DNA of 64,000 nucleotides, taken from assembly GCF_030013205.1 (NCBI RefSeq), contig NZ_CP122648.1; one strand, given 5' to 3'. This DNA comes from Escherichia coli (GTDB lineage: Bacteria; Pseudomonadota; Gammaproteobacteria; Enterobacterales; Enterobacteriaceae). Made by a program: the position numbers. How positions within the stretch are numbered: the first letter of the stretch is position 1; the number at the start of each line of letters is the position of its first letter. Shown in pieces: positions 13,152-16,100 of the stretch.

Positions 13152-16100
13152 TAAAACGTGAGGAAATACCTGGATTTTTCCTGGTTATTTTGCCGCAGGT
13201 CAGCGTATCGTGAACATCTTTTCCAGTGTTCAGTATGGTGCCTTGCACGGTAATTATGTCACTGGTTATTAACCAATTTTTCCTGGGGGATAAATGAGCG
13301 CGGGAAGCCCAAAATTCACCGTTCGCCGCATTGCGGCTTTGTCACTGGTTTCGCTATGGCTGGCAGGCTGTTCTGACACTTCAAATCCACCGGCCCCGGT
13401 CAGCTCCGTTAATGGCAATGCGCCTGCAAATACCAATTCTGGTATGTTGATTACGCCGCCGCCGAAAATGGGGACGACGTCTACAGCTCAGCAACCGCAA
13501 ATTCAGCCGGTACAGCAGCCACAAATTCAGGCAACTCAACAACCGCAAATCCAGCCGGTGCAGCCAGTAGCTCAGCAGCCGGTACAGATGGAAAACGGAC
13601 GCATCGTCTACAACCGTCAGTATGGGAACATTCCGAAAGGCAGTTATAGCGGCAGTACCTATACCGTGAAAAAAGGCGACACACTTTTCTATATCGCCTG
13701 GATTACTGGCAACGATTTCCGTGACCTTGCTCAGCGCAACAATATTCAGGCACCATACGCGCTGAACGTCGGTCAGACCTTACAGGTGGGTAATGCTTCC
13801 GGTACGCCAATCACTGGCGGAAATGCCATTACCCAGGCCGATGCAGCAGAGCAAGGAGTTGTGATCAAGCCTGCACAAAATTCCACCGTTGCTGTTGCGT
13901 CGCAACCGACAATTACGTATTCTGAGTCTTCGGGTGAACAGAGTGCTAACAAAATGTTGCCGAACAACAAGCCAACTGCGACCACGGTCACAGCGCCTGT
14001 AACGGTGCCAACAGCAAGCACAACCGAGCCGACTGTCAGCAGTACATCAACCAGTACGCCTATCTCCACCTGGCGCTGGCCGACTGAGGGCAAAGTGATC
14101 GAAACCTTTGGCGCTTCTGAGGGGGGCAACAAGGGGATTGATATCGCAGGCAGCAAAGGACAGGCAATTATCGCGACCGCAGATGGCCGCGTTGTTTATG
14201 CCGGTAACGCGCTGCGCGGCTACGGTAATCTGATTATCATCAAACATAATGATGATTACCTGAGTGCCTACGCCCATAACGACACAATGCTGGTCCGGGA
14301 ACAACAAGAAGTGAAGGCGGGGCAAAAAATAGCAACCATGGGTAGCACCGGAACCAGTTCAACACGCTTGCATTTTGAAATTCGTTACAAGGGGAAATCC
14401 GTAAACCCGCTGCGTTATTTGCCGCAGCGATAAATCGGCGGAACCAGGCTTTTGCTTGAATGTTCCGTCAAGGGATCACGGGTAGGAGCCACCTTATGAG
14501 TCAGAATACGCTGAAAGTTCATGATTTAAATGAAGATGCGGAATTTGATGAGAACGGAGTTGAGGTTTTTGACGAAAAGGCCTTAGTAGAAGAGGAACCC
14601 AGTGATAACGATTTGGCCGAAGAGGAACTGTTATCGCAGGGAGCCACACAGCGTGTGTTGGACGCGACTCAGCTTTACCTTGGTGAGATTGGTTATTCAC
14701 CACTGTTAACGGCCGAAGAAGAAGTTTATTTTGCGCGTCGCGCACTGCGTGGAGATGTTGCCTCCCGCCGCCGGATGATCGAGAGTAACTTGCGTCTGGT
14801 GGTAAAAATTGCCCGCCGTTATGGCAATCGTGGTCTGGCGTTGCTGGACCTGATCGAAGAGGGCAACCTGGGGCTGATCCGCGCGGTAGAGAAGTTTGAC
14901 CCGGAACGTGGTTTCCGCTTCTCAACATACGCAACCTGGTGGATTCGCCAGACGATCGAACGGGCGATTATGAACCAAACCCGTACTATTCGTTTGCCGA
15001 TTCACATCGTAAAGGAGCTGAACGTTTACCTGCGAACCGCACGCGAGTTGTCCCATAAACTGGACCACGAACCAAGTGCGGAAGAGATCGCAGAGCAACT
15101 GGATAAGCCAGTTGATGACGTCAGCCGTATGCTTCGTCTTAACGAGCGCATTACCTCGGTAGACACCCCGCTGGGTGGTGATTCCGAAAAAGCGTTGCTG
15201 GACATCCTGGTCGATGAAAAAGAGAACGGTCCGGAAGATACCACGCAAGATGACGATATGAAGCAGAGCATCGTCAAATGGCTGTTCGAGCTGAACGCCA
15301 AACAGCGTGAAGTACTGGCACGTCGATTCGGTTTGCTGGGGTACGAAGCGGCAACACTGGAAGATGTAGGTCGTGAAATTGGCCTCACCCGTGAACGTGT
15401 TCGCCAGATTCAGGTTGAAGGCCTGCGCCGTTTGCGCGAAATCCTGCAAACGCAGGGGCTGAATATCGAAGCGCTGTTCCGCGAGTAAGTAAGCATCTGT
15501 CAGAAAGGCCAGTCTCAAGCGAGGCTGGCCTTTTTCTTTTGGTTGGGGAGCCGGTGTGTTTGTGGGCTGGATAAGCCGCAATAGCGTCTCATCCGGCAAT
15601 TTGCACCCTATGTGTTCATCATCTTGCGCACTAGCTGCATAAACAGCTCCTGCTCTTCTCCACTCAAACGCCCCAAAAATTCCTCATCCACGCTGTCACC
15701 TATCGGTATCGCCGCAGCAAGTATCTTTTCGCCTTCGGCAGTCAGCCAGACAAAGCGTCGCCGCTTGTCAGCGGCGTCATGTTCACGTCTGACTAAGCCA
15801 CGATTTTCCATTCTTGCCAACATTTCTGCCAGCGTTGCTTTGGTGCTGACGGCTGCTTCCATCAGTGCCACCTGTTCGATACCAGGTTTATCAGCAATGG
15901 CGCGCATCACCGCGTACTGTGGTTTGGTCAGATCAGGTAACTCGTGCTGCCAGCGGGCCGTGTGTTGCTGAAAAAGCTGTCGTAACTGATGGAACGCTTT
16001 ATTTCGTAACGCCATGTAAACTCCGGGCTAATTCTCTGTCGCTATCATAGCGGTTTTTCAGTGACGAAGAAGATGTTGTTACTTTTCAATCCTTGCCGCT

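Follow-up and report, generated by a model that had tools for sequence, protein, structure and literature searches.

A Gln/Pro repeat in nlpD of Escherichia coli with rare, recurrent and in-frame length alleles

NlpD of Escherichia coli is a lipoprotein that activates the amidase AmiC at the division site, as reported for the identical K-12 protein (PMC5533458), and its 'unusual amino acid repeat sequences' are credited to Ichikawa et al. 1994 (as cited in PMC2736372). Here, we describe this Gln/Pro-rich repeat in a 64,000-nucleotide (nt) stretch of E. coli DNA (the window; contig NZ_CP122648.1 of assembly GCF_030013205.1) and follow its length through the complete genomes of the species. Three in-frame copies of a 24-nt unit are the norm, and a small minority of genomes carry alleles that are longer or shorter by 48 or 9 nt. 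The repeat is very probably an old in-frame triplication within a flexible tether, occasionally resized by slippage between short homologies, with alleles that are close to neutral. The repeat itself is already known, and its state in the window is that of the reference allele; as far as the 1994 description is conveyed by the paper that cites it, the gene, the protein sequence and the repeat are the same and the window adds no difference of its own.

Codons 66-92 of nlpD (13489-13569) encode three units, QQPQIQPV, QQPQIQAT and QQPQIQPV, followed by a QPV nonamer. This is exactly the peptide quoted in the original prediction, made from the sequence alone, of in-frame Gln/Pro tandem repeats inside nlpD; the coordinates given there, 13490-13570, picked out the right repeat but were shifted one base too high. 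Tandem Repeats Finder reports the repeat at 13487-13556 with a period of 24, 2.9 copies, 69% matches and a score of 77, and besides a transfer RNA (tRNA) array it is the sole tandem repeat scoring 60 or more in the window. DNA identity is 21/24 between units 1 and 3, 17/24 between units 1 and 2 and 15/24 between units 2 and 3 (63-88%). At the protein level, self-similarity at an 8-residue shift amounts to 12/16 residues, a value reached by none of 2,000 shuffles of the whole protein (maximum 9) and by none of 5,000 shuffles restricted to the Q/P-rich linker (maximum 10). A 67-residue open reading frame (ORF) on the minus strand over the repeat (13481-13684) was rejected as a by-product that mirrors the CAG/CTG-rich coding strand, with no support as a gene.

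Several lines of evidence identify the gene as nlpD. ORF calling on the window yields a 379-residue protein that matches the curated model NCBIfam NF008123 over its full length (679 bits against a cutoff of 311), carries the Pfam LysM and M23 domains, and is identical to UniProt NLPD_ECOLI by exact-sequence look-up, which finds it on at least 1,000 contigs. The gene order pcm-nlpD-rpoS is confirmed by Pcm (TIGR00080, 12528-13154) upstream and RpoS (NF004207) downstream. The repeat falls in the N-terminal segment, the first of two linkers predicted to be disordered, whereas amidase activation is mediated by the degenerate LytM (dLytM) domain (PMC5533458). No solved structure reaches N-terminal of residue 235. 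Metal-ligand motifs of the M23 family are HxxxD and HxH; read in the sequence, NlpD has NKGID and RLH, not these motifs. The start of nlpD is annotated inconsistently in RefSeq: UniProt and other records use the ATG at 13294 (379 residues), whereas many RefSeq records, including an MG1655 assembly and all length-variant alleles, use the TTG of codon 16 at 13339 (364 residues or equivalent). The ATG form has a positively charged n-region (K7, R11, R12), as expected of a signal peptide.

The length of the repeat was followed across 5,426 complete E. coli genomes, 5,419 of which hold the locus, and carriers were sought by querying with real or synthetic alleles so that they rank first. The nlpD span was exactly 1140 nt, corresponding to three units, in 39 of 39 full-length matches sampled evenly down the ranking, and in total at least 72 of the 5,419 genomes (~1.3%) depart from this length, which leaves ~98.7% with three units. 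The first case with a single unit was the weakest-matching strain, OkiPb01695, which has a clean 48-nt deletion. This one-unit (-48 nt) allele is present in at least 60 genomes, the top 60 matches all being single-piece and full-length; its total is only bounded, given that BLAST coverage and identity-band counts are inexact where two-piece matches get joined. A 111-nt query centred on the repeat was not covered in 66 genomes, and indirect counts arrive at 63-66 length-variant genomes. A five-unit (+48 nt) allele was found in one genome, PapRG-04-4, the loss of one QPV (-9 nt) in seven genomes, and a third QPV (+9 nt) in four genomes from two backgrounds. Queries with synthetic two-unit and four-unit alleles had zero carriers among the complete E. 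coli genomes, and single-unit 24-nt steps were rejected as the mode of variation on this ground; no zero-unit allele was seen among the loci examined. Every length allele is in frame. A 24-residue duplication is seen in one E. coli protein (P0003) of a larger collection.

In the loose sense the locus is therefore a variable-number tandem repeat, a tandem repeat at one locus whose length is polymorphic between isolates. The original prediction had called the repeats prone to slippage, so that linker length may vary between strains, and had proposed counting units across alleles. That comparison finds the repeat number not to be invariant, and the earlier interpretation is supported in a weak form: alleles of -48, +48, -9 and +9 nt do exist, but with diverged units and one length in nearly all genomes the variation is occasional and not hypervariable. 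Beside the length alleles, an nlpD match is absent in 5 of the 5,426 genomes and falls short of 80% of the gene in 8 others, all of them possible natural disruptions or deletions of nlpD.

Of the carriers of the one-unit allele, 28 are identical O157:H7-type genomes, including SS17, its relatives EC4115 and TW14359, and SS52; three units are kept in Sakai, EDL933, Xuzhou21 and O55:H7 strains. SS17 has been placed in lineage I/II, clade 8, where it clusters with spinach-outbreak strains (PMC4321836). The exact 363-residue protein of this O157 allele occurs on at least 1,000 contigs, and hence the allele is not an assembly artefact. Searches of the literature for nlpD in connection with tandem repeats, O157 or its clade 8, TW14359 and EC4115 turned up neither an account of the E. 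coli length alleles nor any link between nlpD and O157:H7 clade 8.

The breakpoints can be located to within a few bases. Over 773 nt of EC4115 sequence, EC4115 and Sakai agree without a mismatch for 383 nt counted from the left end and for 401 nt counted from the right, and the two stretches overlap by 11 nt. Removing 48 nt from the Sakai allele thus gives the EC4115 allele, with no further difference, and puts the junction inside the 11-nt CAACCGCAAAT that opens both unit 1 and unit 3. PEC145 also has one unit but retains an intact unit 1 and not a hybrid of units 1 and 3, and so has a different breakpoint, probably in the 7-nt GTGCAGC common to the ends of these two units. In the five-unit allele units 1 and 2 are duplicated, which is the reciprocal event. 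The alleles of -9 and +9 nt are changes in the copy number of the nonamer CAGCCAGTR, and both occur where the nonamer pair is perfect (CAGCCAGTA twice).

The same deletion recurs in different backgrounds. The 14 one-unit genomes fetched fall into at least six haplotypes of flanking single-nucleotide polymorphisms (SNPs), of which four match specific backgrounds with three units or with an allele of -9 or +9 nt (Sakai-, MG1655-, 2014C-3061- and 13P460A-type) and the remaining two are those of OkiPb01695 and PEC145. The distinguishing SNPs sit within ~60-100 nt on either side of the -48 nt junction, and because they are this close on both sides independent deletion is more parsimonious than recombinational transfer. 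Judged by these haplotypes, the -48 nt allele arose at least six times, and with alleles and backgrounds counted together this 100-nt stretch has undergone at least ten independent length changes.

We infer the following history from these observations. A short Gln/Pro-rich element, QQPQIQxx, would have been triplicated in frame long ago within the disordered tether that joins the outer-membrane lipid anchor at Cys26 to the peptidoglycan-binding LysM domain, where it would encode part of a flexible spacer; it is not known to act as DNA or as RNA. Units 1 and 3 have short exact matches at a distance of 48 nt, and these, like the 9-nt pair, would then allow replication slippage or unequal exchange; recurrent events of this kind between short direct repeats probably produce the length changes. 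Such slippage would occasionally change the length by two units (48 nt) or by one QPV (9 nt), as a loss or as a gain, and every product would stay in frame with at least one unit. The resulting alleles appear to be tolerated and to drift, one of them seemingly having become fixed in an O157:H7 sublineage.

Relatives of E. coli are consistent with an old origin and a tolerant segment. The NlpD of E. fergusonii has three units, and another Escherichia lineage with ~91.5% nucleotide identity to the window has seven, among which there is a perfect duplication of 72 nt. PQIQPVQ occurs once, and mostly conserved, in Citrobacter, Salmonella, Phytobacter, Kosakonia, Enterobacter, Lelliottia, Atlantibacter and Pseudocitrobacter; behind it come a Q/P/T/V stretch that varies in length and sequence and then a conserved QPVA(E/Q)... 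lead-in to LysM; the linker of C. freundii is as short as that of the E. coli one-unit allele. From this distribution, the triplication is specific to Escherichia and had already happened before E. coli and E. fergusonii diverged, and the segment is a length-tolerant, fast-evolving part of the tether. A comparable case is Salmonella Typhimurium UK-1, whose nlpD carries a strain-specific deletion of 12 bp that spares the rpoS promoter region (PMC3391293), and the deleted CGCCGCAACAAG would fit the TPQQA segment of Salmonella NlpD. The deletion resembles the E. coli alleles in being in frame, in affecting the Gln/Pro-rich N-terminus of NlpD, in differing between close strains and in lying off the rpoS promoter; unlike them, it concerns another species, a 4-residue repeat unit and a single strain.

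Three points weigh against the history given above. QQPQIQ is invariant in 13 of 13 units of three Escherichia lineages (the window and the seven-unit lineage, 10 units, at the DNA level; E. fergusonii, 3 units, at the protein level only), and within its 18 nt variation touches each of the six third codon positions but none of the 12 first and second positions (15 distinct unit sequences, all fetched loci). The chance of such third-position-only placement is ~5e-5 if all sites are equally mutable, a rough figure given that the units are few and not independent. This synonymous-only variation, together with the single PQIQPVQ conserved in other genera, suggests a constraint on the QQPQIQ peptide itself beyond what a featureless spacer would need. 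The three units of nearly all E. coli and of E. fergusonii mean that length could be under selection. Finally, slippage is read from the breakpoints, and the silence of the alleles is something that we infer.

The same observations can be turned into a functional proposal, namely that the octapeptide is a short linear motif, for example for docking to the divisome or the outer membrane, that its copy number tunes NlpD and that the alleles are adaptive. A fusion with only the N-terminal linker is weakly enriched at midcell (PMC5533458), and the invariance of QQPQIQ, the PQIQPVQ kept in most of the other enterobacterial genera sampled and the lack of zero-unit alleles all fit. However, the LysM domain is both necessary and sufficient for septal localisation (PMC5533458), Yersinia NlpD is entirely without the Gln/Pro repeat region (PMC2736372), the motif is degraded in Kosakonia cowanii and in one Enterobacter sequence and kept only in part in C. 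freundii, and one-unit alleles persist in the successful O157:H7 clone and in at least five other backgrounds. We regard a functional motif, although the main rival, as unlikely on balance, and still less likely its more specific form, in which QQPQIQPV is a conserved linear motif whose valency of 1, 3, 5 or 7 in Escherichia would tune the recruitment of NlpD or its inactive hold at the outer membrane. Under this specific form, the one-unit allele of the O157:H7 sublineage would alter cell separation or envelope behaviour there.

A role as a contingency locus, highly mutable and serving frequent switching of NlpD through phase or antigenic variation, is very hard to reconcile with the data, even though this is a tandem repeat in the gene of a surface-proximal lipoprotein and its length alleles arose repeatedly. 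The units are not near-identical (63-88% in DNA; 69% matches in Tandem Repeats Finder), no length change breaks the reading frame, each being a multiple of 3 nt, which provides no on/off switch, and the prevalence of one length among the 5,419 genomes, together with one identical allele in 28 O157 genomes, indicates clonal stability; nor is there a switch of expression, the repeat lying 326 nt from the rpoS promoter. That promoter is the starting point of the other improbable alternative, in which the repeat works as DNA or RNA, through regulator-binding sites or an RNA element for nlpD-rpoS expression, and the peptide is incidental. nlpD does form an operon with rpoS, whose major promoter lies inside nlpD (PMC3391293, PMC1852560), as the original prediction had said and as the published positions, mapped to the window, bear out. 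The promoter falls in the coding region of the second NlpD linker, 326 nt downstream of the repeat measured to the -35 hexamer, and is untouched by any length allele, so that no effect on RpoS is expected; at ~360 nt upstream of the rpoS transcription start, the repeat is outside the main rpoS transcript. Moreover, amino acids are conserved and synonymous sites vary, the opposite of what a nucleotide element predicts, and Rfam has no family matching the repeat region. Any function at this level is thus scarcely credible. A generic sigma-70 consensus scan of 13150-14520 found no promoter, the published rpoS hexamers being too weak for such a scan.

An old triplication resized by slippage is accordingly the reading that we retain, and as a feature it is ordinary, with little weight for biology at large. 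What is added here is the allele census, the step sizes of 48 and 9 nt and the breakpoints behind them, and the finding that the deletion recurs and that a sublineage of O157:H7 carries it. The NlpD tether tolerates natural losses and gains of 16 residues. Within O157:H7, the -48 nt allele is a mark of the sublineage to which published clade-8 strains belong, and a simple sizing of products of the polymerase chain reaction (PCR) could make use of it.

Table 1 Coordinates of nlpD, its repeat and the adjoining rpoS features in the window.
Feature	Position	Strand	Evidence
nlpD coding sequence, murein hydrolase activator NlpD	13294..14433	+	NF008123, Pfam LysM and M23, UniProt identity
Signal peptide, lipobox L-A-G-C	13294..13371	+	Spotted by eye in the sequence
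Cys26 (TGT), lipid-anchored first residue of mature NlpD	13369-13371	+	Sequence reading
N-terminal linker, residues 27-122, from lipid anchor to LysM; contains the repeat	13372..13659	+	Pfam domain limits
Repeat unit 1, CAGCAACCGCAAATTCAGCCGGTA = QQPQIQPV	13489..13512	+	
11-nt exact direct repeat CAACCGCAAAT, copy 1, one breakpoint side of the common 48-nt deletion	13492..13502	+	Sakai vs EC4115
Repeat unit 2, CAGCAGCCACAAATTCAGGCAACT = QQPQIQAT	13513..13536	+	
Repeat unit 3, CAACAACCGCAAATCCAGCCGGTG = QQPQIQPV	13537..13560	+	
11-nt exact direct repeat CAACCGCAAAT, copy 2, 48 nt downstream of copy 1	13540..13550	+	Sakai vs EC4115
Nested 9-nt tandem pair CAGCCGGTG CAGCCAGTA (QPV QPV), site of -9/+9 nt alleles elsewhere	13552..13569	+	
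LysM domain, residues 123-165	13660..13788	+	Pfam PF01476, E = 2.7e-12
Main rpoS promoter inside nlpD	13895..13930	+	Positions relative to rpoS ATG (14496) from PMC1852560
rpoS promoter hexamers and start	-35 TTGCGT 13895-13900; -10 TATTCT 13918-13923; start near 13928-13930	+	Hexamers verified in the window
Degenerate LytM / M23 domain, residues 279-372	14128..14409	+	Pfam PF01551, E = 4.6e-33
rpoS coding sequence, 330 residues	14496..15488	+	NCBIfam NF004207, 602.7 bits

Other variation was seen along the nlpD-rpoS region. Among NlpD relatives, P0030 (340 residues) is without 39 residues of the second linker (QPTITYSE...VPTAS), a deletion that would take out the DNA carrying the rpoS promoter. 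In P0045, P0087 and P0092 the NlpD N-terminus is fused to Sigma70_r4 or UbiD domains, which points to natural deletions from nlpD into or across rpoS. The RpoS of the window has Val239 (GTC, 15210-15212) and Glu33 (14592-14594), and an EDL933-based primer in PMC1852560 encodes Ala (GCC) at codon 239. The exact 61-mer around codon 239 is found in 17 of 4,813 matching complete genomes, and the eight carriers listed are all swine or wild boar strains, among them O139:H1 and porcine enterotoxigenic E. coli (ETEC); the window probably belongs to this lineage. Downstream of rpoS the window holds a MarR/SlyA-like regulator (15608-16015, minus strand), a UbiX-like flavoprotein (16162-16755) and a UbiD-like decarboxylase (16755-18182). 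These genes, 15608-18182, are the slyA/kpdR-kpdB-kpdC insert of the polymorphic rpoS-mutS region, described as 'pattern IV' and absent from K-12-type strains (PMC4209514). The tRNA array of the window (61928-62652) consists of tRNA-Ser(GCT) followed by three tRNA-Arg(ACG), with a tandem period of 275 nt, 2.1 copies and 91% matches. K-12 has four tRNA-Arg(ACG) copies in this array, so the copy number may differ between strains.

Several known systems help to place the nlpD repeat. The simple repeats of phase-variable surface genes in Neisseria and Haemophilus are, like it, polymorphic in copy number and situated in genes of envelope proteins. However, nlpD differs in having diverged units whose length is a multiple of three, in always staying in frame and in varying only rarely. 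The classic deletion and duplication hot spots between short direct repeats in lacI of E. coli offer a parallel for the mechanism: the nlpD breakpoints likewise lie in exact repeats of 7-11 nt that are tens of nucleotides apart, deletion and reciprocal duplication are both seen, and the same event recurs, although the nlpD cases are natural population alleles and not mutation rates. For the protein, the parallel is the (Glu-Pro)n/(Lys-Pro)n region of TonB, a proline-rich spacer that spans the periplasm. The two sequences are unrelated, and NlpD is anchored in the outer and not the inner membrane, but both are low-complexity, proline-rich repeats that separate a membrane anchor from a functional domain and tolerate changes in length, and in NlpD, too, the repeat probably acts as a spacer.

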